Position numbers and translations under genes: made by a program
From: Psammoneis japonica
Taxonomy: Eukaryota
Assembly (NCBI GenBank): GCA_008632985.1
Contig: QPGO01000284.1
Span: 1 to 64,000, forward strand
Direction: 5' to 3'
DNA length: 64,000 bases
Notes under the pieces: generated by a model
Told to the model about the DNA's origin: nothing
Databases searched by the model: none
What the model saw: the letters and a program-made list of their open reading frames with translations, nothing else
Shown: piece after piece, positions 132 through 57,085 of the stretch
How positions within the stretch are numbered: the first letter of the stretch is position 1
Layout of the letters: each line of letters begins with the position of its first letter

Positions 132-134
132 CTA

Positions 135-6898: not shown

Positions 6899-6901
6899 CA
6901 G

Positions 6902-10184: not shown

Positions 10185-10580
10185 GATGCGTTCCAGACAC
10201 AGGTGGGAATCCGTGTGACATTGGGCCCGTAGACTTCTGCGTGCGAGCTCCGCAGTAAAATCACACGGCAATTAAAATGTCAATGATCGCCAACAGAAAA
10301 TGAGGCAATTTTGCGAACGCACAAACTCGCCCATGATTGAAGTGCATCATTTTTTACTTGGCCAGTTACATTCTTCAGACATTGAAGAATGCACCTGGCG
10401 CATCATTGTTTCTGTAAATTCGTCATGCAAAACGTCTGGGGCTTTGCAAAACAGCGAGTCTGGACAATTTTTTTTAAATGTCACACGCAGAAATCTACGT
10501 GCGAAACATGCGACAGATGGCAAAAATTGTTTGTGTCACACGTCAGTGCTGCGAGCTCCCACCCAGGGCTGGAACGCGTC
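10185..10580 (+). mobile_element. MITE family copy, 396 bp, TSD ACTT
   Basis: actt|gatgcgttccagacacaggtggga...tcccacccagggctggaacgcgtc|actt. Inserted in the LINE RT. Confidence 0.95.
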
Positions 10581-10774
10581 ACTTGACACTTGCGATCAAT
10601 TGGAAGTCCGCCTCGTAGATGTGAATCACACGCAACTGATGAATCTTGTCATTGCCTGGTTCTTTGAAAATCACAACGTCAACAATGTCTTTCCACTGTT
10701 CGTGCGAGTGGCCCCACTTCAGCGCACAATTGATCAGGTTGAGCCGCATTGCCACGAGAGACTGTTGGACCGAA

Positions 10775-11170
10775 GACGCGTTCCAGCTCCAGGTGGGACC
10801 TTGCACTGCTGAACTGTGACACAATTGTTTTTTGTCATCCGTCGCATGTTTTGCACGTGCATTTCTGCGTGTTCCATTGTAAAAAATTGTTCCACACTGC
10901 CTGTTTTGCGAAGCCAAAGGCTTTCTGTCATCTGCGTTCATGTCAACAAAAATGCACTGGGAACGTTCTTTAATGTCTGAAGAACATGCCCGGGCACACT
11001 GCAAAGAATGCACTTCAAGTGTGGAGGAGGAGATGTGTTCGCAAAATTGCCTCTTTTTCTGTTGGCTGTCATTCATGTGTCCATTGCTTGACAATTTTAC
11101 TGCGGAGCTCGCACGCAGAATTCTGCGGGCCCAATGTCACAAAAAGTCCCACCCAGGACTGGAACCTGTC
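10775..11170 (-). mobile_element. MITE family copy, 396 bp, TSD CGAA/TGAA
   Basis: cgaa|gacgcgttccagctccaggtggga...tcccacccaggactggaacctgtc|tgaa. Confidence 0.93.
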
Positions 11171-12281
11171 TGAATCTGGCAGTTCTTTCTGCTCAGATGG
11201 ATTCCCGTCGTCGTCGTGATTGGATGCATGAGAATGGGGAGCATGCGCGGCTTTCCAGTGTCCCAAATGAGTCCCAGATTTCAATGATGCAGACACAGAT
11301 TCTCACCACAATGCCATCTTTGACTGGAGAGCCTCGGGAGTGAGAGCGTTGGGAACTGCTGGTGGTGTGCGTCTTCGTAGATGCTGCATCAGTGATGATG
11401 TGGCCCGACTCAGGTGGTCCGTTTCGCGCTCCCCGTCTAAGATCAATTCGGCCATTGTGGCATCTCCTTTGCATCCGAGATCAACTGACAAGGGAGGGAC
11501 TGTGGGAGGAGCTCCATGTGCCTGTCTGAAATGGCGTTGACTGCAATGCTGGAGAGCAGATTCAACGTCTTCTGGAGCATCAATCATTGTCCAGTTCTCG
11601 CATGTCTTGGGATTGTCTCAAGGATCCGCAGGGATCTGAACAGCTCACACGCTGGAATCTTCTGACTTTTTACACGTGTTGATTTTCTGAAAGACTCGCT
11701 TGGTTTCTTCAGCACAGTGTTGGTTTTGCAGCAAACGAGCTTTTGCCTTTGACTGGTTTGCACACTCCAGCTTGAGTTCCGCGACACGTGTGTCTCTCTC
11801 AGCTTCACGATGTTTCTGACTCTCTTGTGTCACCTGTCGACATTCTGTCTGAGCCTTCCGCAGTGCGGCAGTGCACTCCTGTGAGGTCACTGGAAGAACA
11901 AATGAGTTCTTTAAATCAAACTTGGCACACAGAACAGCAGGCACCACACTCACTTTGTTGCAAAACATTGACATCATCCTGGACAATGCAAAGATCTGTT
12001 TTTGCAGGTCAGCCAATTTGACAGACAATTTGGGCTCTGTGCACCGGCGGCAACATTTGGCGGATGCTGAGCAGAACTGCGGCATGTCGCAATCAAGTCT
12101 CTCTGCCAATTTGTGGTCAGAGATCTTGAGCTGCAGCAATGACTCTGTACGTTCCCTGACGTTTCGACTTTGTGGAAGGGGCGCCATTGTCTCCAGGCAA
12201 GCAGCAACGTGTTCCGGAGAATTTGCATGTAAATCACGATGTTGCATGTGAGGTGGGTCAACAGCAGGATTGCCAAACAAA

Positions 12282-15200
12282 GTGACTTTGCCGCCGTTTT
12301 GAGCCCTTGGTGATTTTGTGCCCTTTGTGGTTTTGCGCCCTTGTCCATTTTGCGCCCTTTGTGATTTTGCACCCGTTGCTGCCATTTGGCACCCTTTGTG
12401 ATTTTGAGCCCTTTGTGAATTTGCGCCATTTGTTTGTTTTGCACCCTTTGATGCCGCTTTGCACCCTTTGCCGCCATTTGTGCCCTTGGCCATTTTGCGC
12501 CCTTTGTGATTTTGCGCCCTTGGCCATTTTGCACCCTTTGTGATTTTGCGCCCTTTGCCGCCATTTTGCACCCTTTGTGATTTTGCACCCTTGGCCATTT
12601 TGCGCCCTTTTTGATTTTGAGCCCTTTGTGATTTTGAGCCCTTGGCCATTTTGCACCCTTTGTGATTTTGCACCCTTTGCCGCCACATTGCACCCTTTGT
12701 GATTTTGCGCCCTTTGTGATTTTGCACCCTTTGTCATTTTGAGCCCTTTGCGACTTTGCGCCCTTGAACATTTTGCGCCCTTTGTGATTTTGCACCCTTT
12801 GCCGCCATTTTGCACCCTTTGTGATTTTGAGCCCTTGGAACTTTGCGCCCTTGGCCATTTTGCACCCTTTGTGATTTTGAGCCCTTGGCCACTTTGCGCC
12901 CTTTGTGATTTTGCACCATTTGCCACCATTTTGCACCCTTTGTGATTTTGCACCCTTGGCCATTTTGCACCCTTGGCCATTTTGCGCCCTTTGTGATTTT
13001 GGGCCCTTTGTGATTTTGTGCCCTTGGCCATTTTGCTCCCTTTGTGAATTTGCACCCTTTGCTGCCATTTTGCACCCTTTGTGATTTTGCGCCCTTTGTG
13101 ATTTTGCGCCCTTGGCCATTTTGCGCCCTTTGTGATTTTGCACCCTTTGCCGCCATTTTGCACCCTTTTTGATTTTGTGCCCTTGGCCATCTTGCGCCCT
13201 TTGTGATTTTGCGCCCTTTGCCGCCATTTTGCACAATTTGTGATTTTGCACCCTTGGCCATTTTGCGCCCTTTTTGATTTTGAGCCCTTTGTGATTTTGA
13301 GCCCTTGGCCATTTTGCACCCTTTGTGATTTTGCACCCTTTGCCGCCATTTTGCACCCTTTGTGATTTTGCACCCTTTGTGATTTTGAGCCCTTTGTGAT
13401 TTTGTGCCCTTGGCCATTTTGCTCCCTTTGTGAATTTGCGCCCTTTGCCGCCATTTTGCACCCTTTGTGATTGTGCGCCCTTTGTGCTTTTGCGCCCTTT
13501 TGGCCATTTTGCGCCCTTTGTGATTTTGCACCCTTTGCCGCCATTTTGCACCCTTTGTGATTTTGAGCCCTTTGCGACTTTGCGCCCTTGGCCATTTTGC
13601 ACCCTTTGTGATTTTGCACCCTTTGCCGCCATTTTGCACCCTTTGTGATTTTGCACCCTTTGCCGCCATTTTGCGCCCTTTGTTTGCACCCTTTGTGACT
13701 TTGCACCATTTGCCGCCATTTTGCGCCCTTTGTGATTTTGAACCCTTTGCTGCCATTTTGCACCCTTTGTGATTTTGCGCCCTTTGTGATTTTGCGCCCT
13801 TGGCCATTTTGCTCCCTTTGTGATTTTGCACCCTTTGCCATTTTGCACCCTTTGTGATTTTGCACCCTTGGCCATTTTTCGCCCTTTGTGATTTTGCACC
13901 CTTTGCCGCCATTTGGCGCCCTTTGTGATTTTGAGCCCTTTGCGACTTTGCGCCCTTGGCCATTTTGCACCCTTTGTGATTTTGCACCCTTTGCCGCCAT
14001 TTTGCACCCTTTGTGATTTTGCACCCTTTGCCGCCATTTTGCGCCCTTTGTTTGCACCCTTTGTGACTTTGCACCATTTGCCGCCATTTTGCGCCCTTTG
14101 TGATTTTGAACCCTTTGCTGCCATTTTGCACCCTTTGTGATTTTGCGCCCTTTGTGATTTTGCGCCCTTGGCCATTTTGCTCCCTTTGTGATTTTGCACC
14201 CTTTGCGATTTTGCACCCTTTGCAGCCATTTTGCGCCCTTTGTGATTTTGTGCCCTTTGCCGCCATTTTGCGCCCTTTGTGATTTTGCCCCTTTGGCCAT
14301 TTTGCACCCTTTGAAATTTTGCACCCTTTGCCGCCATTTTGCACCCTTTGCGATTTTGCACCCTTTTTTATTTTGCACCCTTGGCCATTTTGCACCCTTT
14401 GTGATTTTGAGCCCTTTGCAACTTTGCGCCCTTGGCCATTTTGCACCCTTGGTGATTTTGAACCCTTTGCCGCCATTTTGCACCCTTTGTGGCTTTGCGC
14501 CCTTTGTGGCTTTGCACCCTTTGTGATTTTGCACCCTTGGCCATTTAGCACCCTTTGTGATTTTGAGCCCTTTGTGATTTTGAGCCCTTGACCACTTTGC
14601 ACCCTTTGTGATTTTGCACCCTTTGCCGTCATTTTGCACCCTTTGTGATTTTGCACCCTTTGTTGTGATTTTGCACCCTTTGCCGCCATTTTGCACCCTT
14701 TGCTGCCATTTTGCACCCTTTGTGATTTTGCACCCTTTGTGATTTTGCACCCTTGGCCATTTTGCTCCCTTTGTGATTTTGCACCCTTTGCAATTTTGCA
14801 CCCTTTGTGATTTTGCACCCTTTGCCACCATTTTGCACCCTTTGTGATTTTGCACCCTTGGCCATTTTGCACCCTTTGTGATTTTGCACCCTTTGCCTCC
14901 ATTTTGGGCCCTTTGTGATTTTGCACCCTTGGCCATTTTGCACCCTTTGTGATTTTGAGCCCTTTGCGACTTTGCGCCCTTGGCCATTTTGCGCCCTTTG
15001 CACCCTTTGCGATTTTGCACCCTTTGCAGCCATTTTGCGCCCTTTGTGATTTTGTGCCCTTTGCCGCCATTTTGCGCCCTTTGTGATTTTGCGCCTTTTT
15101 GGCCATTTTGCACCCTTTGAAATTTTGCACCCTTTGCCGCCATTTTGCACCCTTTGCGATTTTGCACCCTTTTTGATTTTGCACCCTTGGCCATTTTGCA

Positions 15201-17269
15201 CCCTTTGTGATTTTGAGCCCTTTGCGACTTTGCGCCCTTGAACATTTTGCACCCTTTGTGATTTTGCGCCCTTTGCCGCCATTTTGCACCCTTTGTGATT
15301 TTGCACCCTTTGCCGCCATTTTGCTCCCTTTGTGATTTTGAGCCCTTTGCGACTTTGCACCCTTGGCCATTTTGCACCCTTTGTGATTTTGCACCCTTTG
15401 CCGCCACTTTGCACCCTTTGTGATTTTGCACCCTTTGCCGCCATTTTCTGCCCTTTGTGATTTTGTGCCCTTTGTGATTTTGCGCCCTTGGCCATTTTGC
15501 TCCCTTTGTGATTTTGCACCCTTTGCGATTTTGCACCCTTTGCAGCCATTTTGCGCCCTTTGTGATTTTGTGCCCTTTGCCGCCATTTTGCGCCCTTTGT
15601 GATTTTGCGCCTTTGGCCATTTTGCACCCTTTGAAATTTTGCACCCTTTGCCGCCATTTTGCACCCTTTGCGATTTTGCACCCTTTTTGATTTTGCACCC
15701 TTGGCCATTTTGCACCCTTTGTGATTTTGAGCCCTTTGCAACTTTGCGCCCTTGGCCATTTTGCACCCTTGGTGATTTTGAACCCTTTGCCGCCATTTTG
15801 CACCCTTTGTGGCTTTGCGCCCTTTGTGGCTTTGCACCCTTTGTGATTTTGCACCCTTGGCCATTTAGCACCCTTTGTGATTTTGAGCCCTTGACCACTT
15901 TGCACCCTTTGTGATTTTGCACCCTTTGCCGCCATTTTGCACCCTTTGTGATTTTGCACCCTTTGTTGTGATTTTGCACCCTTTGCCGCCATTTTGCACC
16001 CTTTGCTGCCATTTTGCACCCTTTGTGATTTTGCACCCTTTGTGATTTTGCACCCTTGGCCATTTTGCTCCCTTTGTGATTTTGCACCCTTTGCAATTTT
16101 GCACCCTTTGTGATTTTGCACCCTTTGCCACCATTTTGCACCCTTTGTGATTTTGCACCTTTTGTGATTTTGCACCCTTGGCCATTTTGCACCCTTTGTG
16201 ATTTTGCACCCTTTGCCTCCATTTTGGGCCCTTTGTGATTTTGCACCCTTGGCCATTTTGCACCCTTTGTGATTTTGAGCCCTTTGTGACTTTGCGCCCT
16301 TGGCCATTTTGCGCCCTTTGCACCCTTTGCGATTTTGCACCCTTTGCAGCCATTTTGCGCCCTTTGTGATTTTGTGCCCTTTGCCGCCATTTTGCGCCCT
16401 TTGTGATTTTGCACCTTTTTGGCCATTTTGCACCCTTTGAAATTTTGCACCCTTTGCCGCCATTTTGCACCCTTTGCGATTTTGCACCCTTTTTGATTTT
16501 GCACCCTTGGCCATTTTGCACCCTTTGTGATTTTGAGCCCTTTGCGACTTTGCGCCCTTGAACATTTTGCACCCTTTGTGATTTTGCACCCTTTGCCGCC
16601 ATTTTGCACCCTTTGTGATTTTGCACCCTTTGCCGCCATTTTGCTCCCTTTGTGATTTTGAGCCCTTTGCGACTTTGCACCCTTGGCCATTTTGCACCCT
16701 TTGTGATTTTGCACCCTTTGCCGCCACTTTGCACCCTTTGTGATTTTGCACCCTTTGCCGCCATTTTCTGCCCTTTGTGATTTTGTGCCCTTTGTGATTT
16801 TGCGCCCTTGGCCATTTTGCTCCCTTTGTGATTTTGCACCCTTTGCGATTTTGCACCCTTTGCAGCCATTTTGCGCCCTTTGTGATTTTGCACCCTTTGC
16901 CTCCATTTTGGGCCCTTTGTGATTTTGCACCCTTGGCCATTTTGCACCCTTTGTGATTTTGAGCCCTTTGCGACTTTGCACCCTTGGCCATTTTGCACCC
17001 TTTGTGATTTTGCGCCCTTGGCCATTTTGCACCCTTTGTGATTTTGAGCCCTTTGCGACTTTGCGCCCTTGGCCATTTTGCACCCTTTGTGATTTTGCAC
17101 CCTTTGCCACCATTTTGCACCCTTTGCGATTTTGCGCCCTTGGCCATTTTGCGCCCTTTGTGATTTTGCACCCTTTGCCGCCATTTTGGGCCCTTTTTGA
17201 TTTCGCACCCTTTGTGATTTTGCAACCTTGGCCATTTTGTCCCCTTTGTGATTTTTTGCCCTTTGCGAT
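12282..17269 (-). repeat. 17/20-bp modular satellite, array 2 (~5 kb) with 1,320-bp higher-order repeat
   Basis: Units gcaccctttgtgatttt (17), gcacccttggccatttt (17), gcaccctttgccgccatttt (20). Lines at 14161/15481/16801 and at 14881/16201 are identical (offset 1,320). Confidence 0.96.
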
Positions 17270-17453
17270 TGAACAAACGCTGCCATGACAGCCAAGAATT
17301 GGGTGTGAGACAAGACAGAGTGCACGACAGCATCAACAGGTTCCAGAGTTGTGAGATGTCACGCTGCTGGGACCACCAAATGAGCGACAGTGGACCAATT
17401 GCCAATGTTGTGTGAATTGCCAGCATTCGTGACAGTGTGCCAGCATTTGTTCA
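17270..17453 (-). repeat. 3' LTR of the Copia element (184 bp)
   Basis: Bounded by the 8-bp inverted repeat TGAACAAA...TTTGTTCA. On the minus strand it is preceded by a purine tract (ttcaagggggc) just after the RNase H end. Confidence 0.8.
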
Positions 17454-20400
17454 GCCCCCTTGAACTGACGCTGGCTCCACTTGGGCCAGATTGACAGACA
17501 AGTGCAACCTGATGCTGCCCTGCTCCAGGGCAGCATTTTCATGTTGGGGATGGGAAAAGCCGCACATGCGTGGCAAACCCATTCTGTTTGTCCCCTTTTG
17601 GGGCTTGCCACAGGACATGACTTGCAATTTCCTGGAGCTTCAGCCCAGGCAACAACTTGGTTGGCACGTCCGCCAAATTCGTGTGCCCGTCTTCCCAAGC
17701 AATGCGCGCTGTTCCAGCAGCTTGTGCCTCGCAAGTCCTGTGACAGGCAATCGCATTGTGCTTCTTCTTCAAAGCAGACTCTGGCTCAGTTGAGTTCTTG
17801 AAGACAGCTTCATTGTCGCAGATGACATCAGCGGCTCCATCCACGGGGATTCCCAGCATCCGAAGCTTGCAATGCAAGGCTTCAATTTGCTCCACTGCAG
17901 TCTTCATTGCCATGAACTCTGACCCAAAAGTGGATGATTTCATGGCATTCTGCTGCTCAGAGCAACACAAGATGGGAGCTTGTTGTTGAATGTCAGGATC
18001 CCAGTGTGGGACCTGCACATCACACAGCATCCGGCATGATCAGCGTTGACAAAGCAAGCAGCAGTCATGCTGTTCCCACGTGCTTCTGGCATGTTCGGCG
18101 GAATTGGTTCAGCCGCACCAGGACAATGTTCTCCCTGGTTGCACTTGGCAAAACGACTCTTGTCAAAGACCGGCTCAATGTCATCGAACACTGGCGCAGA
18201 CTTGGAGCGAGCCTTCAAGCATGCAAAGACATGGAGCACCTCGTCCAGGTGTTGAACTCGTGGTGCTGCCAAGCAGGAGAACATGAGTGAGAAAGCAACA
18301 AAAATGTCCACTTGCCTCAGCTCAACTGTCCATTGCAGCACACCAACAAGGCCTTGGCAGCAGTTGGCCATTTTGGCACTCAACTCAGGCAAGCCATCCA
18401 GCTCAGGCCCATGCCCCGAGCTCAAGGGCATCAATGCCTTTGTCAGAAGGCCCGCCAGTTTTCTTGAGCTCCAACTCAACATCGGCCAATGCCCTTTTGA
18501 CACAAAGGTCAGAGGACATGGCCCAGCGTGTCTTGCCATCCAAGTCAGACAACTGGCACTTTCTGATCTGGGCGCCCAAGCACTCTTCCGGCTCACAGAC
18601 ACTTCCGTCCTTGCGCCCGTGCCTGGAGCTCACATGATCCACGACCTTCTGAGGTTCATGGGAGATGCACAACAAGTCATCCATGCACACAAGCACATGT
18701 TCCCAGTGCTTGAAGCCACCCGGCTTGACCGCAGCTCACATCCAGACATCCGGGTCAGCCTTGCAAGACTCAAACCCAGCGTCATGCAAGGTGGCTGCCA
18801 TGTGTTCCCTGAATCTCGCACCTGAAGACTTGAGACCACACAAGGCTCAGACAACAATTGCCAGCCTTCCTTCGTTGTGCTTCCCAAATTCCAGGCCAGC
18901 AGCAGTGCAACACTTCTCCTCAGTGTGTGCGTTCAAGTGGGCACTCTGAACGTCAGCACTCAGGACCTCCAGGTCATTCAGAGCTGCTGCAGCAAATGCT
19001 GTCCCAGCGCTGTCATGTGATGCCACACCAGAACAAGTCAATTCCTTGGGTGGATTGGTTTGATGGCCTCCGGCCACAAACCTTGCTTTGCGTTGGAGGG
19101 TGCTCTTGATGTCAAAGATCACATGACAGTCAATGTGATTGTGCCTGACCGGTGCAGTGTCGTCATCACAGAATTCAAGCGCAGGCATGACGTTGCGCAT
19201 TTCCTTCTCAATGTTTGCTGCAGCGCACTCAGCAACCTCGACTGGGTCAGATTCCTTCAAATCCTTGAGGGGAACCCAGGATGCAGTCCCGTCCTTCCAT
19301 TTGACTTGCAGGTCCCAGCCTGCAGTTGTCCTCCCAGGAGCGTGCCTGCCAGTCTCAGACGTCATGCACCTGTCATCAGCCGTTGCGGCACGGGCATCAC
19401 ATTGGTGATCAACTGTCTCCTTCACAATCTGGCAGGCATTCCCTTCAGAGTCCATCTGAGCAAACAGGTTCTCTGCAATTGCGTCAGCGGCACAGGAATC
19501 AGTGGATCCATCAGGAAACTCCACATCGTGTGTCCTCAAGTCTGGGACAGGGTTGTCATTCCCAGCACCAATGGGAACCCCGTCATCATCTTATTTGCAT
19601 GCAATGACGTCCATGAAGTCATCAGGGAGTTCAGGGAAGTCAGCATTGGCACCCTGTTCCGGGATGTCGAGTCATTCAATCAAGGCCTGATTGACTGACG
19701 CAAGATCTGTTTTGATTGCCAGAGTTTTAAGGTCATCCTCCGGCATGGCCCACACATCTTTCTGAATGATGGGTCTGCCTGATTTGGGCAGGATGACAAA
19801 TGCCATGTCGTCAGTGCAGTTGCAGTTGTCAGCTGCTCCAAGCCAACGGCCGATGCACTTCTTCTTGTGTGGGAACTCTGCCACAGGCATGTGACAGCAG
19901 ACAGGTTGACACCAATCAAAGAGAGAGAGAGAGCGACAAAATGTCAGGTGTTGAACCTGTCACCTCTTCTTCTGGGACTCATCCTCCCATGTCTGATGTG
20001 CTGGCAGTCGCAATCATGCGTTGGACATCACATGTCCACTTGGCACTGCGGGACCAAAGTCGCCTGTGAGCGCCAGTCCGGCGCAGAGTCACTCGGACTC
20101 TCTTCTTCAACTCATGGATGGATGCCTTGGCCAGGTTCTGCCAGGGGCTGTGCGGGGTGGACACCTCCTGGTGCATCCTGCATTCCTTGCAAATCTCCTT
20201 GGTCTGGCCTTCTGCCATTTAAGGTGCGCCATCAAACACAAGGACTTGACATGACGGCACTCAGGTGGCCCTGTTTCTCTTCCAAGGATGGAGCCTGTCA
20301 TGCCCTCTTCCATTGGCAAATGTGCTCCCTCCCATCTTGCCATGCATTGACCTGACCTTCGAAAACATCTGGTCAGAGCAGAGGTGTCCTTTGACAGCAG

Positions 20401-20651
20401 GGAACTCAAGCCACGGGGCTTTCTTCCAGACTTTCCGCTCAGATGGCACGCAGACATTGCGGACCCCTGCCTGGGTTGTCACTCTGAGGGTGTTCTTGGT
20501 GGCCGTCACACCAATGCTCCACCTCTTGGAGAGCATCTCGGGTGTGATGGTTGATGCATGACTTGAGGTCAACAGCGCATGCACCCATTTCTGCTTGGCA
20601 CAATCCGGGTGGATGTCTGGGTTGCACCGGTCGTGCAGCCCATCTCCCTCA

Positions 20652-21034
20652 GACAGGTTCCAGCCCCAGGTGGGACTTTTTGTGACATTGAGCCCGCAGA
20701 ATTCTGCACGCGAGCTCCGCAGTAAAATCACTGGGCAGCAAACATGTGGGTGATCACCAACAGAAAAAGGGGCAATTTTGCAAATGCATCTCCTCCTCCA
20801 CACTTGAAGCACGTACTTTGCAGCATGCCAGGGTGTGTTCTTCAGACATTGAAGAACACACCCAGCGTGTTTTTGTTGACATGAAGCCTTTGGCTTCGCA
20901 AGACAGGCGGTGTGGAACAATTTTTTGTGACAGAGCACGCAGAAATGTGTGTGTGAAACATGCGACGGATGACAAAAAACAAACACGCCACAGCTCAGCA
21001 GTGCAAGGTCCCACCCAGAGCTCTGGAGCACGTC
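20652..21034 (+). mobile_element. MITE family copy, TSD CTCA
   Basis: ctca|gacaggttccagccccaggtggga...tcccacccagagctctggagcacgtc|ctca. Inserted in the Copia. Confidence 0.93.
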
Positions 21035-21128
21035 CTCAATGTTGTTGTGGGAGATGCGTTCGCCTGAGCAACCAGGCGGCAATGCAGAGAATTGTCGTCA
21101 TCAGTGTCCAGCATGTGGTTTTTAGTTG

Positions 21129-21240
21129 TTTTGCACCCTTTGTGATTTTGAGCCCTTTGTGATTTTGAGCCCTTGGCCATTTTGCACCCTTTGTGATTTT
21201 GAGCCCTTTGCGACTTTGTGCCCTTGGCCATTTTGCACCC
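21129..21240 (-). repeat. 17-bp modular satellite, array 3 (short)
   Basis: ttttgcaccctttgtgattttgagccc...ggccattttgcaccc. Confidence 0.93.
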
Positions 21241-40135: not shown

Positions 40136-40231
40136 CATTGCAGTTGCATGCAATGAAATTTTCATCATGTAAAGTGTGCACTGCATTGCAGCTGCATGCA
40201 ATGAAATTTTCATCATGTGAAGTGTGCGCTG
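40136..40231. repeat. 48-bp tandem duplication
   Basis: cattgcag.tgcatgcaatgaaattttcatcatgt(a/g)aagtgtgc occurs twice; one copy has TA where the other has TG. Confidence 0.85.
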
Positions 40232-42274: not shown

Positions 42275-42289
42275 TGGGCTGATGCGCGC

Positions 42290-42760: not shown

Positions 42761-42834
42761 GCTGCTGCCTGCACTGCTGTTGCTGATGCACCTCTGCTTG
42801 TTGTTTTTTTTAACATGCAAAGTGCCTGATCCAC

Positions 42835-46099: not shown

Positions 46100-49000
46100 G
46101 CCATGGCGGTCAATGACTTCACCCCGTCTCACGACGATGTTGACCCCGATCCTTCCTTCCAATTTCCTGATGAATGTGATTTTGATGATGTGGAATGTTT
46201 TGCCAATGGTTTTGGAATGGAGTTGTTTGGTCCCAAGCTCAAAAGCATGGTTTCAATGCGTGCATCCAAAAAGCAGTTTTTGGAATCGACGAAATGGACT
46301 CCCTCTCCACAATTTCTTGCTCTTCCCTTCCTTTGCCACAAGCCGAAGTTGCGTCGAATTCCGTGTGTCACGGAAGTCATCCGCGCCAACAATGTCATCA
46401 GGAAAACTCTTGGATGCCCTGACGTTTGGTCTTGCATCAAGACTCGTGGTGGTCCCTGAAGAAATCCTGCTTGGTGAAAGGTCAATGCTGCCTTCGTCAT
46501 CGAAATTTGGACAAAGCTCTCCATTTCTCCAAAATGCCCGGAGAGACAGTTCAACAAGAAGAGCACCACATGAATCTTCACCGCAACATCTTGTCTGTGC
46601 GATTGTTGCCGGTGACGACCCAAATGATCCCGTTTCCGGCAAGCCTTGTTTCCGGTTTCTAAAGGAAGACAATCTCAAAAAACTGATCGACGACCGTGCA
46701 AAAGACCTCCACGGTGCATTTTTTGTCACCGAAATCGCAACGCGTCACATTCAGCACAAACAAAATGACTTTGACTGCTGGTTCATGCAGATTTTTCATC
46801 ATGTCCAATCGCAAAAGGAGTGGCGCCTGTTTGCCAACAGCTTTCTTGTGCCATGCAACTCTAACGACCCGGGCTCTCAGGCAGATGATGTCAAGGAACA
46901 CCTCGCTCCGGACCAAATCGGCAACATGAAGAACAAAGTGACAATGGCTGGTGATTCCCTTGCAAAGAAAAAATGAATTCCATGTTGAACCACGAATTTG
47001 GGAAGCGCTGTCCTGAGGAACAACCTGGCACACAACCCAAGTGCAGCAAGTTGCTCACAATCCTTTGATGCAGAATGCGTGATCAGAGGGCGGACTGCAT
47101 GGATGATGACAACAAACGAGAGCATCAATCCAAAACCAAACACAAAATTGGGAGGACCCGCAAAGACGGCACCTGTTTGTACGATGGTGCGTGCCCCCCC
47201 CTCCTTGTTGCCGCATGTTTCTTGTGCATCCGTCTTCTCATGCACCCATGTTTTACCCTGTTGTTCACATTCGCTGCATGAGAGCCTTCCTTGACAGTCC
47301 CCAACAAGAAGCCAAAGACTGCATCACGCTCCACCAAGGCACGTCCTCCTTCGTCTGCCAACCTGCCGTCGTCACGGGAGGCAAACCGCATTCTCACGGC
47401 CGACCTTCCCACTTTGTTGGAAACCATGGATTCCCACAAACCTTCCTCTTCACTGGAAGGTCCTCCTGCCCAGCTGCCAGCCTCTCTGCTGGTTCGCACC
47501 ACGAAAGGCCCGGTTGCGTCGTCTCCCCCACTGGACCCCAACGACATGTCGTGGTTGGACAAGTCCACACTCCGACAGAGCTTTGACCCGTCCAAGTGTC
47601 GATCTGTCACCTCAGACGAAGTTGCTGCTCATGTGTCACGCCTTCACATCATTGACAAGGCAACTGACACGGAGCGTGTGCTTCACCATTCCGCGGCCGA
47701 CTTTTACCTTGCCGACAACCTCAGGGAAAACTGGCACATCTTTTCAAACAAAACCCCCATCAGCGACCCAACTGCCGCATCTCGTGTGAGAGCTGAGTGT
47801 CCTCCTGACCTCAATCACTGCTCAGACGAACTCTCTGTTGCCCGTCATGCAAACTCTCTTTACAAAGGGCACTTTGGTTGCCTTCGTGTGTGCATTCCTG
47901 CCCTTTTGCTTTTCATTTTGTTGAAGGGAGAGTCTGATTTTCAAATGTGACGGATCACTGGCAGTTGACAAGGAAGACAGACAAAGGATCAAGATTGGCT
48001 GTGCTGGTCGGTCATGTCATCCAAAGGAGCCTGGCTCTACAAAATCAGCCAAACCCAAGGCCACACACGGTCTTCATGTTTTTGATCCTGACAAAAACTT
48101 CGACGTGAAAGAGTCTTCCAAAATCAAGGCCATGGTTGCTGACATTCTTGACTCGACTCAGCTTTGCGAAAACAACGTCGAGCTTTGGAAGCTTCGCAAC
48201 CCCCCACCGTTCAACTGGTCACTTCAGTGTGAAGAGCATTCGAAAATGTTTTGTGATGAAATGGGTTGTCCACATTTCCGTCGTGAGGACGTCACCCTGC
48301 AGGGATCATGCACATCCCGTGGTCAATGTTGTGAAGGACACCGCGACGTAAAAAACTGCACCTGGCTTCAATGTCGGAAGACAGCCGCTGGTCATTTCTT
48401 TGTCATGGGTGCATTTGGCGATGTGTGGTCCTTCAAGGTAGTCGCCAACAGCAGAAGCCCCATCGGTCAATGCTGCGATGATGAGTGCGACATGAACCCG
48501 ATGTTGACTCGGATGCACCACAACCGAGCTCAGCTTGACTTTGTGCTTAAAGACATGGATCTCCAACACGATGGTCCCACCCATCCTGACTCTGTCCTGA
48601 CCACACGCACATTCAAAAAACTCTCGCTGGATGACAGCCGGCCATGGAACAATGTTGTCATTGGCGGAGGCGGTGTCACGGGAATCCCCCATGTGCACAT
48701 GGATCGGCTCAAGTTCCCAACATTCCCTGTGAGGGACTTTCACCTGTCCGCCCCAAGCACAGTTCTGTTCCGTTTCAAGAACATCTGTGCACAGATCGGG
48801 GCCAGATCCGAAGCAAGTGATGCGGTTGGCCATTCATGCTGGTCATCCGACAGGGCATCACCGATTCTACTGTGTCGGTGACAAGCACCTGCCTGAGCTG
48901 TGTTGCCAAGGCGTCGACCCATTTCTACAATTCGCTGATTGCTTGATGAATGAGTTTGGCGTTTTGTTTGGTGATCCACAGGTGGGCAGGATTGGCCCAA

Positions 49001-51070
49001 CCAATTTGACCTACGATGAGCTCGCCAAGGTTTTCATTGACGACAGGTGCATTGGCACCGCTGATGACCCAGTCAAATGTGATGGTCGACGAAATCTGTG
49101 CAGTGCTGCTTTGGCTCAATGATGGCGTCACCACCGATGAGTTCTGTCCCAATTTAATGGAACAACGCTGCAAGGCTGCCTGCGATGTTTGGGCACACAG
49201 GGGAGCAGATTTTAGCGAGATTCATCTCATGTCAGTGCTGCATTGTCTCGCTCTATCCAGTGTTGTGGTGAAGGACCACCTGCGTCTGAACAACATGATG
49301 TGTCCTGCATTCAATTCTGGCACGGCCGCTCAACTGGCCCACATCAACCCAGACAAACCAACTGGCCCACATCAACCCAGACAAACGACCGCTCATGCAC
49401 CAACGCATGTGATTGGAGACCGGGGCCGAGGAGCACGGTTGGAACGGTGCAGAGCACAAACTCTGTGAGAACTCGGACAATCGCTGCACGTGCATGTTCG
49501 ATTGCATGTTCCGCGGTCCATGTTCCGGACAAGATCTCTTCTTCATTTTCTCCATCAGGCAAGCGATTGCGCAAACCCTGTGGATCAGTGGATTGTCAAA
49601 TTGTGGAGTGCGTTGACTCAGACCCTCGCCTTTACGACCAAAAAGATGCGACGGTTCAAGGTGGAATTGCGGCTGACCTTGGTGATGAGTCCTTGTTGCG
49701 TGATGGAGTGGCTGCTGACAATGAATTAAACTCATTGTCTGGATCATCCAACCAGGACAAATCCTTGCCGGAAGAATCCTCCGACGATGAAGACAGTGCG
49801 GGATTAATTTCTTGCGCATCGGACAACAACGAATCATTGGCACTTGACGGAGTTGTGGCAGACAATGAACTTGGCTCCTTGCATGATGAGTCCTCCAACG
49901 ACGAAGAATGTGCGGGATCATTTTCTGGTGCATCAGACAAGAACGAATCATTGACTCTGCATGGAGTTGTGGCAGACAACGAACTTGGTGACAGTGTTTC
50001 AGAATGCGGCGCCCCTGTCATTGCTCTCAAGGATGAGGAGAGTTCTGTTGATGCCACCAATGACTGTGCGAATCCACCCGACCTTTCACAAAATCCCACT
50101 GCAAATGTGGACGAACACGTGGCGGCAACTTTGGCGCAAGTCTCGCACCTTCTCCTTTGAGACTTGAGTGTGAATTGCTGTTGTGGCTGATGTGTGACTC
50201 TTTCTGCCCTGCTTTTTAACAATGCACAGTCGCGACAGCAGCGCCAAAATCCTGTGGCTGTGCATGTCCAGGCCTGCAAATGCCGGACAGCTGTCCTTCA
50301 ACGAGCTTTGTTCCGACCGTGGGGTGCAGGCCGTGGCCAACACTCAGCATCAAAGAGACGAGGCTGGGTGTCAAGTTGCGGAAAACCTGTGCACGAATGC
50401 CAGCGTTGAGGCATGCACCATCTCTCTGCAGGACGGAAGTGCCATGCACCACCTCAATTGCAACATTTCTGCAAAGGATTTTGTGTCTCGAGTGAAGTCA
50501 CAATTCGGCGGTGAAATTGATTTTAAGAACAGTGGATTCATCCAGATTTGCATGGACTGTTGCTGGATGCAATGCGGCGAGTGGAACATGACGTCTTTTG
50601 GCAATCGCTTCTTCCGCGAAAACCCAAAAGAGATGATGCCATCCTTGTTGCATCCCAAGTTTGAAAGGTGTCGCATCACAGTCCCACACAACCTGTGGTC
50701 TCTCTCCCAAGTCGTGCGCAACTTGGAGCATGTAGAAGAATGCGCGCTGATTCAATTGATGACTCACGAAACGGCATTGGACGAAATTACGATGTGCCAA
50801 ACGTCGCTCGAAATCGCAGAACAAGACAGGGGGATTGGCTGGGAAAACCATCCGACCAGGAAGCCATGCATTCAGGAGTCACGGAACAGGAAATTTGGGA
50901 AACACTTCCGGAAACAGAAAGGGACAAGGTCTTAGACTTCACAAGAGAAGTTAAGAGTTATGATCCGAATGATCCATGGAAGTTTTTTTCTTTCGAAAGA
51001 AGCGTGCCAAATTGGCAGACCTGCCTCGACCCGTGGCCCCGGTGGTTTCTGGACCCGCACATCGACGAAT
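46100..51070 (+). pseudogene. Long degenerate ORF series of unknown function, convergent with the Plavaka-like transposase
   Basis: Consecutive protein-like + ORFs (46103, 46098, 47291, 48105, 48787, 49016, 49243, 50222, 50668). Includes a GHRDVKN motif and three ~120-140-bp ESL..DGV.ADNEL repeats (49685-49990). Confidence 0.45.
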
Positions 51071-51239
51071 GAAGCTGACTCCTTCAATTCTTGTGGCCTT
51101 GTCAACTGCACAAATTAGGTGAGTGCTGATGGTTGTGTCGTCTGTTTCCGAAATTGCGCATGTTCCAACAATGGCATGCTCTGACACTGTTTCGAAATGC
51201 AAAGCACTGTTTGCAGTTGCCAATTGTCGATTGTGCCCA

Positions 51240-54200
51240 TCAACCGCATTGTGAAACTTGGCCGCCCATGTTTTTCTCCTGTCTTGAACTGCCCAAACGT
51301 GCTTTGTCTTCTCGTGTGACTCTGTGATTCCCGGTTGTTCCTCGCACACCTGCAATTTTTCACCGACCGCCTCAATTGGAACCAAGTGCAGTTTTGGAGC
51401 ATGCACGGCTTTTTGCGTGTGGACAACTCTTGGTTTTTTACTTGATCCAATTGCCATCGACTGACAAGGTCGGTGTGTTGCATGCGTTCCACCATGGTGC
51501 GCTTGTCCGCCTGGCAAGTGCAAGGATGCACAATTGCAAACAACTCACCATCGCTCATTCTTTGAAAGAAAGAATGAAGTCGTGAAGGGAAGAACAAATC
51601 ACCGCGCCAAGTTCCAAAGTTTGCATTTGCCCAGTCATGAATGGCGCCTTTGCTGTTGCAGTCCGGGTGCGCGCGGTGAGTGTCGATGCCGTTTTTGTCA
51701 CAAATTTGAGGAGAACAGGGTGCACCTGACAATGCTTTTGTTTTCCCTTCCACAGGAACAAAACAGCCTTGTTCGAAGCATTGCACTTCAACACGCATGA
51801 GGAACCACCAAGACGGTGATTGGCCGCATCACCCGCCGCACGCATTTTGCGATCCGACTTCTTTGTTGTCCATGGATTGGCGGAGATGGCTCGGCGAACC
51901 ATCATTTGGTCTTCCATGCGAGACGCAACCTGACCCAGAAGGACATCAAAGCTCCGCTGTTGAGCCATGGCGGCTGGCAATTTGAAAAAATCCTTCAACA
52001 GTGATTTGCCAAGACCAGCATCGAAATTCATGGCATGACGGTAGAAGAACAGGAAAGTGGGCAAATGGATCAATTCATGGAGTTTTTGCAGCTTCCAACC
52101 AGCACCCTTTGAAGGTTGTTTCTGTCTGAAGGAGGGTCACCCAGCTTGTGCCATGCATGGAATGCAAGCATGTCTTTGAGCAGCTTTGCATGCTGGTGAA
52201 CGCTGCATCTAATTGGGATTCTCTTTTTGTTGGCTCTCTTGCGCTTGCCCTCTCCTTTGTTGTCTGATTCGTTGTTGTTGTTTTCAACAGAACGGTCAGT
52301 GTCGCATTTGTTGGATGCTGCATCTTCTCTGTCATCTAGATCAACTGCTGCCTGGCAATCATCCTCCGGATCGCATTCTTGTGGCATGTGGATTCTGTCC
52401 ATTCTGAATTTTGGGATGCGGCGACCCAAGGGAAGTGATGGTTCTTCCGCGTCTTCTTCGCTGAAGCAGGATGCGCAGACCTCGCGACCCTCCTTTGCAA
52501 GCAACAGAAGGTAAAAGACAAAGGCCATCCCCGCCCAGTGATGAGAATTTAAGAAGGTGAGTGAAGTGGCCCCACCTTTGAAATTGGTGCCCAGAAAGGA
52601 GGAACTGCACGTGGATTGGTGATTCCCGAACATCTTTTCTGCCAGCCCGTCTACCTCCTTTCTCACGTTTGCAGTCATGCTGTCCACAAACACATGGATC
52701 TCCCTTTTCAGAGTGCCATTTTCATGCAGGTGCATCATGTCGCTGGCCATGGAAAGAGTTGCTCCGAATGGTTGCTCGCCAAAGTCTGCACACAGCAAAC
52801 TGTTGGTTGGAACATTGTGTTGCTTCATGTGGTGCAGTTCTTCCCTCCAGTGACTCCGCTCCTTGTCTTCAAGACTTTCATCATTGGCCATGCACTGAAC
52901 TCGCAGCAAGTTGCCAGCACGCACCAGCTTGCATTCCTTCCAAGGGTCGTCAAGGTTGTTGCATCCCGTCATGCAAAAACGGGAGCAGCGTTGGCGACAA
53001 TTCTTTGCCGTGCCTGCCCACAAGGCAGTCTCCGCTCTTTGCATCTCCATTGATTAGGATTGTGATTGGAATTACATGAAGGTGACGGATCTCGTCGCCT
53101 CGTCGCACATGACATTTGAAGCCACCCAGCTCCATTGCGTCAAGCAAAGGCTGAAGTGTGGTTTTCAAAACCTTGTGGTGCTCACGAAGACTTTGCCCCT
53201 TTTCCGACTTGCGTGCATTGGACTGCTGTTTTGCTGCGGAAGAAGACATTTTTTCAAGGTCGGGAATGCATCCAAGAACTCTCCACTTAGCTTTGTTGTG
53301 CCACTGTGTGAAGGCAACATGCGCGGAGGTCACTGTCACGGGTTCTCTGCAAGAAGATCCCATCGAAGCTGTCTGTCCCGTCTTGTCTACATGAACTGTC
53401 AAACATTCCAAGAACTGTTTTAGTGGATCCTTGACTCTGGCGAATCGTGCTCCTGTGCCACTCTCCGGCCAAGACGCATTTGTCATCCAAGCCCTTGGCA
53501 ACGTGCATGCCAAAAGGATTGTGTGTGTCCGCAAGATTGCTTTTGTCAGCCCACATGCAAGTGTCAAGCATGTGTGATTCCCACACCTCTTGGAAGTTCC
53601 ATCTTGGAACCATTGCAGTTTTCTCTCCCCGTTCGCCGCTTGGAGTTTCCAGGTTGACCGGTGTCATCTCTCGTTTGGTCCGGGGAACGATTTGGAAAGA
53701 GTTTCCATCAGTGCATTGCGATGAGGCATTTTGGTCCCAAGCTTGAATGTGGTGCTGCAATGTCTTTCGACAAATCCCACAATGTCGTCGCACAGGTGGA
53801 GCGGCGCTCTGCAGTCATCTGTCAGCTTGCTCAACTCCACACAGGCCCCGTTTGGGTTGCTCAATGACGACAAGCCGGCAAAGGCTGCCTCGGCGGGGTG
53901 TTGGCAGATGTTGCCCAATCGGCTGTCATCCAACAGAGAGGAAATGTTCCCTTGGGACGCTTGCGTGTCATCTGTCACATTGCTGTCTGGAACATCCATG
54001 GTGACGTCCGGCAGCGCGGCGAAAGAGTTTGCTTCTGTGTCGCTGCTTTCGTCTGAAAGCATCTCCAGTGACATGAAGCAACTGTCGTCTGGGCCACAAA
54101 TGGAGGAGAGAGGGGACATGTTGTCTTCGAATGCTGGCGACCATGGAGCGTCAGAAGGTGGTTCGGACGAACGGGCAGAACCAGCCATGCGGGCATTGGA

Positions 54201-54517
54201 AACAGAGGCCCCTCGTCTTGATCGTCTCAATCCATGTGTGGAGGTGTGGTTGGATGACGAGGAAGAATCGAGTCCACGAGAAGCCATTGAATGCAAATTT
54301 GCATTCCCAGGGTTGCTGTGCCTTCCAACCACTTTGACACAAGCATCGGGCAACAAGTTGGGTCCCGGCGCACCTTGTGACGCCAAGTTGGACACTTCGC
54401 GAGCGACAGACATTGTGGATTGCGATTTAAGTGACCGAGCATGCGCTGGAAGGAGCGATGGCAACAGGGACAGGCGATGGCTTCTTTGCCCTTGTTTTTG
54501 GACTGAGGAAGTTCCAT
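51240..54517 (-). pseudogene. Plavaka-like (EnSpm-related) transposase, frameshifted
   Basis: N-terminal CPCC...H.....C finger; GEWH; LTVHVDKTG (=YxDKT); EPV; WRVLGCIPDL; INGDAKSGDCLVGR; CSRFC; DMMHLHENG; HRAHPDC...HDWA (=YRAHP.Y...YDWA). Confidence 0.8.
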
Positions 54518-54704
54518 TTTGGTGTTTTGGTGGAAAGAAACAGCAAAGGATTGGCGAGAGTGATTGTGCAAATGGTTGCGGCTGAGGTTTGGTCGTGTGG
54601 ACGGTGTGTGTGTGTTGTGAGGGTTGGCGGGAAACAAGACATGAAATTGGCGCGAAAATGGTGATCATTGATTTTTTTGCATTGATGAATGCTTTTGTGG
54701 TTGC

Positions 54705-55053
54705 AACGTGTTCCAGCTCTAGGTGGGACCTCGTGCTGCTGAACTGTGACATGATTGTTTTTCATCATCTGTCGCATGTTTTGCACGCACATTTCCATGT
54801 GTTCTATCACAAAACATTGTTCCACACTGCCTGTTTTGCGAAGCCAAAGGCTTTCTGTTGTCTGCACTCATGTCAACAAAAATGCGCTGAATGTGCTTCA
54901 AGTGTGGAGGAGGAGATGCGTTCACAAAATTGCCTCTTTTTCTGTTGGCGATCATTCATGTATCCATTGCTCAATGATTTTACTGCGGAGCTCGCACGCA
55001 GAATTCTGCGGGCCCAATGTCACAAAAAGTCCCACCTGGGACTGGAACCCATC
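54705..55053 (-). mobile_element. MITE family copy (internal deletion), TSD TTGC
   Basis: ttgc|aacgtgttccagctctaggtggga...tcccacctgggactggaacccatc|ttgc. Confidence 0.93.
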
Positions 55054-55325
55054 TTGCCTGTCAAAAGAATGCATTGGGACAATTGAACACTTTCGTTTTG
55101 TGTGATAAATGAGAATGCAAAAATTGCCAACGGAAAGGGAAGAGCAAGTCAGAACACAGTCTTCGGAACATTTTGTGATCACCACTCACCATCAATTCTT
55201 TAACTTGCGCGCGCAGTGAAAAGGCAGGTGTTGTTCCACGTCCGTTAGTTCCACCATTGGGACAGTGTCAACGCATCAAAAACAACACCCGTTGTGCCAC
55301 AACAGCCGTGCAAGTGACGTGCACC

Positions 55326-56597
55326 ATGGCTTCCATTGTCCAGAACGACACCTTGCTGGCACGCTGGCCTGATGACTGCTGGAGGAAACTGGCTGAGGTG
55401 GAGAGCATGGGACAAGAAGCAAAAGAGGAAAAGATGGAGGCAGACTGCAGCGCAGCTAAAAAAGAGCTAGGTCGATGGTTGGGCACCGGCAGGAAGGAAC
55501 CATCCAACAACCCCTGCTTGCGAAGAGACTGCATGGACATGTGCAGTTTAATTGGCTCGCACAGCAAAGTCGCGCGCGGTGACTTGGGCGGAGAGCCCGC
55601 AGATGTCAAAGAAATTTGGGTGATTCATTTGATGATCATGGAAAGAGATGAACGGACCATCAAGGAGAAATGGAAGGAACTGTGGGAAACCAAGTGCAAC
55701 ATCATGAGCCGGGTGTGTGAGAACATGCATGAATGGACCAGGGAAGTGAGGGAATGCATGCACGCTGCACAGGCCATGTTCTCCATTCACGACAAGGACG
55801 AGCATTCAGGTTTGATCATTGAGCAAGTGAGGAATGCTCACAAAACACGCCAGCATTGGAACTTGCTGGCAACACACCCGGAGAGGCAGGGAGAACAGCG
55901 TGCGGCAAGCGGTTGGTTGAACGACCCAAGCGATGAGCTGTTTGATGAGTTTGCAGCTGGGTCAAGGGAGGGCGAGCTTTGTCTGGCAAATGACAATCAA
56001 GATGTTGATTCGTTAAGTGGGGAATCAACCATCAGCTTGCCCACATGTGGAATGGACCAAAGCGGGAATTGCGGACCGCTTGCATTGGACAACGGTTTGG
56101 GAGATGTGTGCAAACTGGTTGTGGACCAAAAGGGCGCAGTGTTTGATGCAAGGAAGCTGGCGCATTTGTTCGAGCGACAAGCAGAGCGAGACGCACCTTG
56201 CAGGTTGTGGCGGTGTGACGAATTGGAGTTCTTTGAATTGACACCTGGGAAGGTTGATGGTTGGATCTTGGAAAAAATTGAGAAAATGGGCTTGGGTGTG
56301 GGGTCCTTTGGCCATTGTGACAATGAAGAGAACAGGAGACTACGGAGACAACATCTAAAAATGAAAAAGGAAACGATTCGTCGCAATCACATTGAGCGTT
56401 TCGTTGGGTGTGTCAGCAAGGCAACCAGCGCGTTTGATCGCATGACTGGTTGCTCATGGGAGGGGAGGCACAGCGATTTTGTCATTGTCCATTTAGAGGA
56501 GGATGCGATGGAAGAATTGGATCAGAGATCATTTTTGGTGCCGAGTTTCTGTTGGAGTGCGCATGGAGCATGGACGCAAACTTCTGACCTGCAGTGA
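55326..56597 (+). pseudogene. Tyr-free unknown ORF (probably transposon cargo/accessory)
   Basis: Over 400 codons open, protein-like E/K/R composition, no Tyr, no recognisable domain. Confidence 0.4.
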
Positions 56598-56689
56598 TTG
56601 ATGTTCATGCATGATTCTGTGCAATTGAAAGTTTCAAATGCAATGATCCAGTTGCACATCAAAATTGTCATTGACATTTAATTGTGCAA

Positions 56690-57085
56690 GACGCGTTCCA
56701 GACGTAGGTGGGAATCCGTGTGACATTGGGCCCGTAGACTTCTACGTGCGAGCTCCGTAGTAAAATTATATGGTAATTAAAATGTCAATGATCGCCAACA
56801 GAAAATGAGGCAATTTTGCGAACGCACAAACTCGCCCATGATTGAAGTGCATCATTTTTTACTTAGCCAGTTACATTCTTCAGACATTGAAGAATGTAAC
56901 TGGCGCATTATTGTTTCTATAAACTCGTTATATAAAACGTCTGGGGCTTCGCAAAACAGCGAGTCTGGACAATTCTTTTTAAATATCACACGTAGAAATC
57001 TACGTGCAAAACATACGACGGATGATAAAAATTATTTGTGTCACACGTCAGTGCTACGAGCTCCCACCTAGGGCTGGAACGCGTC
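56690..57085 (+). mobile_element. MITE family copy, young/TA-intact, 396 bp, TSD GCAA
   Basis: gcaa|gacgcgttccagacgtaggtggga...tcccacctagggctggaacgcgtc|gcaa. About 28 TA retained; same subfamily as 10185-10580. Confidence 0.96.

Follow-up and report, generated by a model that had tools for sequence, protein, structure and literature searches.

The first 64,000 nucleotides of contig QPGO01000284.1 from Psammoneis japonica (GenBank assembly GCA_008632985.1), which we call the window, consist of two very unequal parts (Table 1). The larger is a repeat domain that has lost nearly all of its TA dinucleotides and extends past the left edge of the window; the smaller is a gene region of ordinary composition. 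The domain contains copies of a miniature inverted-repeat transposable element (MITE), a relic of a copia-type retrotransposon, tandem arrays and segmental repeats. Two of the MITE copies, referred to by their first positions as the 10185 and 56690 copies, are central to this analysis, as one of them is TA-intact and the other carries CA or TG at most of the same sites.

The two copies align without a gap over 396 bp (10185-10580 with 56690-57085) and differ at 30 sites. While the 56690 copy has 28 TA, the 10185 copy has eight, all of them common to both and none private to it, and the 20 sites that were lost read CA (12) or TG (eight). Every one of these 20 differences runs the same way (sign test, 2e-6), and the remaining ten are distributed as six at CpG and four elsewhere. 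The original prediction, based on the sequence alone, had described the colinear copies, the counts of 28 and eight, the single direction and about six plus four further differences, and base counts bear it out in each respect. It had also proposed a pairwise alignment with a test by dinucleotide context: 20 of the 56 positions within TA differ compared with ten of the 340 outside, a clear enrichment at TA (Fisher p = 4e-12). Its estimate that about 70% of the TA sites had changed over a background of around 1% is close to the measured 71% and 1.4-2.1%.

The two copies have different 4-bp target-site duplications (TSDs) at their borders, which identify them, judged by their flanks, as separate insertions of one transposon. 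The element ends read GACGCGTTCCAG...CTGGAACGCGTC, with GAT at the 5' end of the 10185 copy. The core of the terminal inverted repeats (TIRs) is TAGGTGGGA...TCCCACCTA in the 56690 copy and CAGGTGGGA...TCCCACCCA in the 10185 copy; as predicted, it is self-complementary in the TA-rich copy and mismatched in the other. The two had been called sisters, which holds among the copies in the window, where their divergence at non-TA, non-CpG sites is 2.1% and that of every other copy at least 20%. It does not hold genome-wide: the family is very abundant, and because there are so many genomic copies (1925 contig pieces in one public sequencing run) the true nearest relatives of both are probably found elsewhere in the genome.

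A BLAST search of the window with the element revealed ten family copies in two subfamilies, which share their termini alone (about 73 bp and about 97 bp) and differ in their interiors. The element is about 390-400 bp long and non-coding. Seven of the eight copies checked have 4-bp TSDs, one of them with a mismatch, and the TSD sequence varies between copies. Using the 56690 copy as query, the 1925 pieces of the public run comprise 277 with at least 99% identity, 550 with 95-99%, 665 with 90-95% and 433 below 90%; this run contains 0.66 of the window's words and may be the assembly's own data. On these structural grounds, that is terminal inverted repeats, copy-specific TSDs, short non-coding sequence and high copy number, the family is an abundant and recently active MITE. 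A scan of metagenomes with a 24-base pattern from the MITE gave no matches.

Along the ten copies, the retention of TA declines together with the retention of CpG and with ordinary divergence. The 31104 copy had been singled out as another TA-rich member, and it is indeed one. A relative time order is provided by the copy at 43051-43439, which is nested in an older one and has kept 6 of 25 TA compared with 0 of 27 in its host, consistent with its having been inserted later. As for their arrangement, about 190 bp separate the 10185 copy from the older one at 10775-11170; the two face each other head to head as a hairpin-prone inverted pair with 74% complementarity, and the intact 56690 copy has an inverted partner 1.6 kb away.

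Table 1. Features of the window, with TA retention and target-site duplications of the MITE copies.
Feature	Coordinates	Strand	Remarks
MITE copy, subfamily 1, TA-decayed	10185..10580	+	8/28 TA kept, 12 CA, 8 TG; TSD ACTT
MITE copy, subfamily 1, TA-intact	56690..57085	+	28 TA; TSD GCAA
MITE copy, subfamily 2, TA-intact	31104..31493	+	25 TA; TSD CACA
MITE copy, subfamily 1, old and decayed	10775..11170	-	1/28 reference TA kept, 19 CA/TG; TSD TTCA/TTCG
MITE copy, subfamily 1, old and decayed	20652..21034	+	1/25 reference TA kept; TSD CTCA
MITE copy, subfamily 1, old and decayed, with internal deletion	54705..55053	-	3/24 reference TA kept; TSD GCAA
MITE copy, subfamily 1, oldest-looking, split by the nested copy 43051-43439	42835..43620	-	0/27 reference TA kept
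MITE copy, subfamily 2, nested in the copy 42835-43620	43051..43439	-	6/25 TA kept; TSD CCAG
MITE copy, subfamily 2, decayed	2965..3350	+	4/25 reference TA kept
MITE copy, subfamily 2, partial and decayed	44993..45215	+	2/23 reference TA kept
Copia-type retrotransposon relic	17767..20581	-	Tyr of homologues: Cys 197, His 109, Tyr 0 of 509
TA-stripped repeat domain	1..59100	.	TA 317 vs 3803 expected, rho 0.083; CA 1.57, TG 1.60, CG 0.61
Gene region, ordinary composition	59101..64000	.	rho TA 0.60, CG 1.01; RGS + protein kinase gene

The direction of change is decisive for the interpretation, since the pairwise pattern by itself is symmetric and resembles classical repeat-induced point mutation (RIP). 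Under such a scheme CA and TG would be ancestral, and the lineages of the 56690 and 31104 copies would have gained TA through C-to-T change at CpA on both strands. The composition of the 56690 copy even comes near the customary RIP thresholds (TpA/ApT 0.88; (CpA+TpG)/(ApC+GpT) 0.98); its odds ratio (rho) for TA is 0.86, and in sequence the copy is close to the family majority. To polarise the changes, two alignments of six and four in-window copies were searched for variable sites restricted to TA, CA, TG and CG. In 38 of these, TA occurs with its putative products: 19 sites show TA, CA and TG together, ten TA and TG, and nine TA and CA. A further 37 carry CG along with CA and/or TG, and 14 show CA and TG only. 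TA and CG are found together at one of the 39 TA-bearing sites. Because CA and TG are each one step away from TA, and three steps would be necessary if either of them were the starting state, the mixed sites argue for TA as ancestral; conventional RIP would require double hits at the 19 sites with all three states. Nor is CG ancestral at the TA sites, as some copies should then have retained it. CpG decay alone was considered as the source of the CA/TG mixtures and rejected, the TA-class and CG-class sites being almost disjoint with their single overlap.

The wider family and the ends of the element point the same way. Among the 1925 pieces, each of the 28 TA sites of the 56690 copy has TA as its majority state. 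The table of these pieces lists 40 alternative letters, of which 23 represent T>C or A>G at TpA, and three sites have both. At about nine of the 20 differing sites the state of the 10185 copy stays below the 5% listing threshold and is hence private to it. A TA majority and private CA or TG states speak against RIP from a CA/TG ancestor, and the TA-rich copies are also those with intact CpG and the lowest divergence. The TIR core reads CCTAGG at both ends, with complementary arms, in the TA state only; across 19 arms it has TA in seven, CA in seven, TG in four, TT in one and CG in none. Had CA or TG come first, the arms would originally have been non-complementary. A family with CA/TG ancestral was the outcome that the original prediction had named as its refutation, and both the ten in-window copies and the table of 1925 pieces speak against it.

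Several points weigh on the other side. At 7 of 20 informative sites of subfamily 1 a single product is present in all decayed copies, so that every other copy agrees with the 10185 copy, and these seven sites taken alone would fit CA or TG as ancestral too. We explain the uniform product, provisionally, by a preference for the 3' neighbour, itself estimated from non-independent copies. In addition, a difference outside TA (C at 10394, A at 56899) groups the 10185 copy with the old copies; because of this agreement it may have descended from a sub-lineage of somewhat greater age instead of from a 56690-like master. The family table is depth-weighted and biased towards pieces that resemble the TA-rich reference. 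Furthermore, all evidence is comparative and comes from one assembly, and the family survey consists of the ten copies in the window and the contig table of one run, perhaps the assembly's own.

An outside test of polarity is offered by the copia relic, which is not related to the MITE alignments. Using tblastn with P0145 it is recovered in three frames (20581-19940, 19923-19213 and 19212-17767) and is frameshifted. We compared it with 16 full-length homologues containing 3.0-4.5% Tyr, taken from a library of 1.8 billion proteins, which yielded 12,785 aligned residue pairs at 39% identity. The 509 homologue Tyr align in the relic to Cys (197), His (109), Phe (38) and Trp (32), and never to Tyr; Cys or His is found at 306 of the 509 positions. 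As a comparison residue, Phe is kept as Phe at 173 of 418 positions. The relic has no Tyr codons at all. Conversion of TAY to TGY or CAY is precisely the change in question, so the direction is from TA, and C-to-T mutation, on which conventional RIP depends, is unable to produce Cys or His from Tyr. Mixed states in the family, the family majority, TIR complementarity and the Tyr loss of the relic thus support the view, already taken in the original prediction, of a change from ancestral TA to CA or TG, opposite in direction to RIP, as far as comparison of present-day copies can establish it.

The relic gives only a weak Pfam match to RVT_2 (E = 0.005), which indicates that decay of this kind hides genes from family searches. 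Among the 150 best representatives of its copia homologues, whose median Tyr content is 4.2%, six (P0156, P0180, P0209, P0220, P0257 and P0260) have less than 1% Tyr and raised Cys and His. Comparable relics with erased TA are thus present in public assemblies, whether of this organism or of others. A weak metagenome-contig locus found with the copia open reading frame (ORF) as query (L001, 20 residues matched) was set aside as irrelevant, its composition being ordinary (rho TA 0.72).

The MITE pair is embedded in a domain in which the same loss has gone nearly to completion. For the whole window the odds ratios are 0.126 for TA, 1.54 for CA and 1.56 for TG. Within the domain, the deficits of 3486 TA and 1386 CG are roughly equal to the excess of 4327 CA+TG. 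AA, TT and AT show no depletion, and a general AT-to-GC bias or GC-biased gene conversion was rejected on that account. We adopted the cut-offs per 1-kb window of a preprint on the chlorarachniophyte Bigelowiella natans (rho TA <= 0.43 and rho(CA+TG) >= 1.52; Mettrop et al., bioRxiv 10.64898/2026.01.13.699255). The first is satisfied by all 59 bins of the domain and by none of the five genic bins, and 45 of the 59 domain bins satisfy the second as well, so that low TA and high CA+TG occur in clusters of windows as they do in B. natans. The only TA-rich islands within the domain are the MITE copies at 31.1 and 56.7 kb. Because all of the 59-kb domain apart from these two copies is stripped, the genome must have a process that destroys TA, whatever is concluded about the pair. 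Tandem arrays, segmental repeats and the DNA between elements are stripped as thoroughly as the mobile elements themselves.

The domain has its edge at 58.8-59.2 kb, which is about 0.4 kb upstream of the ORF of a gene encoding an RGS domain and a GRK-like protein kinase (59523-61007, + strand). Its named relatives are all from diatoms, with 37-50% identity, and it apparently has at least one intron within the kinase domain. A 457-residue ORF at 62310-63683 (- strand), also of ordinary TA content, gives a sub-threshold DUF4394 match only. The repeats are stripped and the region of the kinase gene is normal, the pattern expected of a process that targets selfish DNA and spares host genes. These features also complete the case on RIP. 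The domain is poor in TA (TpA/ApT 0.095) and rich in CA and TG (index (CpA+TpG)/(ApC+GpT) 1.77), the opposite of RIPped DNA, and the kinase relatives suggest a diatom and not a fungal host. Overall, we regard the conventional RIP direction as very improbable.

TA and CpG are depleted together, with a Spearman correlation of 0.72 between rho TA and rho CG over 64 bins. Diatoms methylate transposons at CpG, and because the domain is CpG-depleted it is probably silenced chromatin. A further effect concerns stop codons: in the domain, TGA outnumbers TAA and TAG about tenfold. The scarcity of TAA and TAG results in 94 ORFs of at least 150 residues across all frames, of which none in the domain belongs to a Pfam family. 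A Pfam search of 14 + 27 ORFs of the window returned the kinase/RGS gene, the weak RVT_2 match and the sub-threshold DUF4394 match, and otherwise nothing for the ORFs of the domain. We take most of these to be decayed genes or artefacts that arise from the loss of stop codons.

To obtain a spectrum, the ten pair differences outside TA were polarised by the family majority. In the 10185 lineage there are 12 T>C and eight A>G changes at TpA, four CpG transitions, one A>G at GpA beside an edited TA and one A>C. Hence 21 of its 26 polarised changes are A>G or T>C, almost exclusively on TpA, four are CpG transitions and one is a transversion. The 56690 lineage has two CpG transitions, two T>C outside TA and no TA change. 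Expressed as losses, the 10185 copy changed at 20 of 28 TA (71%), at 4 of about 27 CpG (about 15%) and at 2 of about 290 other positions (about 0.7%). On these counts, change at TA is far faster than any other, and the ratio of the rates, if approximate, is shown by them. The copies differ in tempo: the 56690 copy has no TA change and four private changes of other kinds, and the 10185 copy has 20 and six (Fisher p = 0.008). From this contrast, hits seem to fall on individual copies and not as a uniform clock.

Along the 10185 copy, CA and TG products alternate in 15 runs, compared with 10.6 expected. Interleaving of this kind indicates that both strands are targets, and the choice of strand seems to be set site by site. 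The edited A is more often followed by a pyrimidine (35 of 58 candidate sites) than by a purine (12 of 66; p = 2e-6), with C at 22/37, T at 13/21, A at 5/28 and G at 7/38. As the polarised comparisons come from non-independent copies, the resulting preference for 5'-TAY-3' is provisional. The family table is mostly concordant with it, showing T>C at GTA sites and A>G at TAC sites. Within the reach of sequence comparison, these data together with the composition of the domain show a TA-specific transition process that acts on both strands, runs from TA to its products and is confined to a CpG-depleted repeat domain.

The contrast between no TA change and 20 in similarly aged copies would also be natural for a single hit at insertion. 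In that case the element would have been mutated during transposition, as single-stranded or gap-repair DNA, or an ADAR-edited hairpin transcript would have been copied back. We judge editing of such an intermediate to be quite improbable, because the stripping is as complete in arrays, segmental repeats and the DNA between elements as it is in the mobile elements. Strand-coordinated editing of single strands would moreover not give the interleaving observed here, the low rate at 3' G is unlike the preference of ADAR, and a cut-and-paste MITE has no RNA intermediate.

We also considered that a modified base at TpA in heterochromatin could be systematically miscalled in sequencing or assembly. 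Only one assembly is available for the argument, and the sole run that contains the window may be the same data. Yet both versions of the family, with TA and with CA/TG, occur in hundreds of pieces among the k-mer contigs of this run, and two TA-intact copies sit within the stripped domain. In the stripped copies CpG has decayed, indels are present and ordinary divergence amounts to 20-27%; frameshifts mark the copia relic as well, all of which is characteristic of truly old sequence. The same signature was moreover found in B. natans from Illumina data (bioRxiv 10.64898/2026.01.13.699255). Such an artefact is scarcely credible.

Taking these lines together, we consider it very likely that the 10185 copy was hit by TA-specific hypermutation after its insertion, and that the same process has been stripping the 59-kb domain. 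The 56690 copy would then represent an essentially unmutated form of a young and abundant MITE. In the 10185 copy, 5'-TA-3' would have become TG, or CA when the other strand was hit; in each case A is replaced by G after a T, on one strand or the other. Over a longer time the domain would have lost more than 90% of its TA to the process, whose action stops abruptly about 0.4 kb short of the first ordinary gene. Its apparent consequences can be seen in the window: Tyr codons were turned into Cys and His codons, TAA and TAG stops vanished and left long spurious ORFs, and the CCTAGG core of the TIRs was destroyed. As to chemistry, an enzyme of the TadA/ADAT2 type that deaminates DNA adenine to hypoxanthine appears most likely, and it might be targeted to silenced repeats and serve in genome defence.

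Known adenosine deaminases provide some basis for this suggestion. Both ADAR and the tRNA deaminases TadA and ADAT2-ADAT3 cause A to be read as G and prefer or require a 5' U or T. The substrate of bacterial TadA is U-A-C (U33-A34-C35 in the tRNA), which matches the strict 5'-T and the liking for TAC and TAT seen here. These enzymes differ from the proposed activity in that they act on RNA. ADAR in particular edits in strand-clustered fashion and favours a 3' G, whereas in the window the strands are interleaved and 3' G is disfavoured (7/38 compared with 22/37 for C); the pattern is not that of ADAR-type hyperediting.

The same direction of change could be achieved by another chemistry, in which a modified T at TpA (for example hydroxymethyluracil or a base-J-like form on silenced DNA) mispairs, or repair turns it into C. 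Because TA reads the same on both strands, T>C and A>G on opposite strands are indistinguishable in the counts, and a 3'-pyrimidine preference for A equals a 5'-purine preference for T. The authors of the B. natans preprint favour an ADAT2-like adenine deaminase, for which a candidate gene is present (bioRxiv 10.64898/2026.01.13.699255). The tRNA adenosine deaminases act in an invariant U33-A34 context, with which the strict 5'-T agrees. The data from the window favour neither chemistry, and we think a modified T unlikely.

The closest precedent for an adenine-directed process at TpA is that of B. natans. In mutation-accumulation lines of this alga, 230 of 231 new mutations in giant-virus and virophage inserts were A>G or T>C, all at TpA (bioRxiv 10.64898/2026.01.13.699255). 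Mutation rates in the inserts were about 6e-7 per site per generation, with an effect in only part of the lines (Mettrop et al., bioRxiv 10.64898/2026.01.13.699255). As the agent, an ADAT2-like deaminase acting on DNA adenine is suggested by the authors, who note that DNA activity has been reported for some ADAT2 proteins; coding sequences with low TpA were enriched for DDE transposase and reverse transcriptase domains (bioRxiv 10.64898/2026.01.13.699255). The likeness to our observations is considerable. In both cases TpA changes exclusively to TpG or CpA, TA depletion and CA+TG enrichment come in clusters of 1-kb windows, ordinary host genes are spared, and the action is not constitutive, affecting some lines there and some copies here.

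The two systems also differ in several respects. The host is a chlorarachniophyte in one case and a diatom-like stramenopile in the other. The targets there are viral inserts, whereas here they are MITEs, a copia relic and tandem and segmental repeats. Depletion is far deeper and extends much further here, with rho TA of 0.083 over at least 59 kb compared with 0.45 in the region of the nucleocytoplasmic large DNA virus (NCLDV), where clusters start from three windows. The evidence there comes from mutation accumulation and here from comparison. The 3'-pyrimidine preference and the interleaving of strands noted in the window have no counterpart in the accessible text of the preprint, which likewise makes no mention of diatoms or MITEs (bioRxiv 10.64898/2026.01.13.699255). 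A full-text literature search found no report of the signature in a diatom; it returned the B. natans preprint as the sole precedent and otherwise papers on fungal RIP and RNA editing.

Fungal RIP and the APOBEC system are analogues at a greater distance. RIP is likewise a dinucleotide-specific transition hypermutation of repeats and foreign DNA that leaves a strong skew and inactivates transposons. It requires duplicated sequence and acts before meiosis, whereas the target in B. natans is single-copy. In its effect it is a mirror image: C-to-T change at CpA creates TA and stop codons, and the process described here destroys TA as well as TAA and TAG. APOBEC shares the principle of a deaminase-based mutational defence and leaves context-specific clusters of transitions in mobile DNA, but it acts on cytosine in single-stranded DNA and produces strand-coordinated G-to-A changes.

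Extending these comparisons, we put forward as a tentative idea, a possibility rather than an expectation, that diatoms and chlorarachniophytes share a DNA adenine-deaminase defence that mirrors RIP and is maybe widespread or ancient among algae of the stramenopile-alveolate-rhizarian (SAR) group. It would operate in place on double-stranded, silenced repeats at 5'-TAY-3', strike single copies in bursts, and disable transposons through the loss of TIR cores and Tyr codons, the stops TAA and TAG being erased as well.

Context-specific hypermutation of selfish DNA has been known in its C-to-T form from RIP and APOBEC, and for A-to-G at TpA the literature search gave one report. The process in the window is a further case of this kind of hypermutation, described once before as far as that search reached, and the host lineage and the targets are new here. 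The signature is now seen in what seems to be a diatom, a member of a different major lineage that is ecologically dominant, where it affects transposons and ordinary repeats and is near completion over tens of kilobases. If this is correct, the process has a wider range of both hosts and targets. A young, abundant MITE with intact and decayed copies would then offer a natural system for studying its spectrum, its context rules (TAY) and its tempo. For annotation it would serve as a warning, as such domains would yield long false ORFs and Tyr-free pseudo-proteins that escape family searches. It would also point to a naturally occurring DNA adenine-editing activity.

The remaining content of the domain is varied. 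Large arrays built of units with a 17-nt period (17/37/54/71-nt spacing) occupy 11645-17426 (- strand sense) and 6880-7470, the block at 6.9-7.5 kb being inverted relative to that at 12-17 kb and 83-86% complementary to it. They are nearly free of TA (five in 5 kb) and contain spurious ORFs of up to 1722 residues with KGAKSQRVQNH-like repeats. A segment of about 2 kb is present three times (4800-7000, 22930-25100 and 32600-33900) at 80-90% identity, with 0, 3 and 4 TA. The commonest adjacent double difference between these copies is CA<->TG (36, 17 and 9 cases; 36 compared with 8 for the runner-up), which fits an ancestry from TA or from CpG alike, TA being gone from all copies. The stretch 34700-38300 is of intermediate composition (rho TA 0.14-0.18, CpG 0.86-0.96) and less decayed than its neighbours. 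It includes an ORF at 35140-35610 (- strand) that gives no Pfam match and, by eye, has the look of a DDE transposase of the Harbinger type in which expected Tyr positions are occupied by His or Cys.

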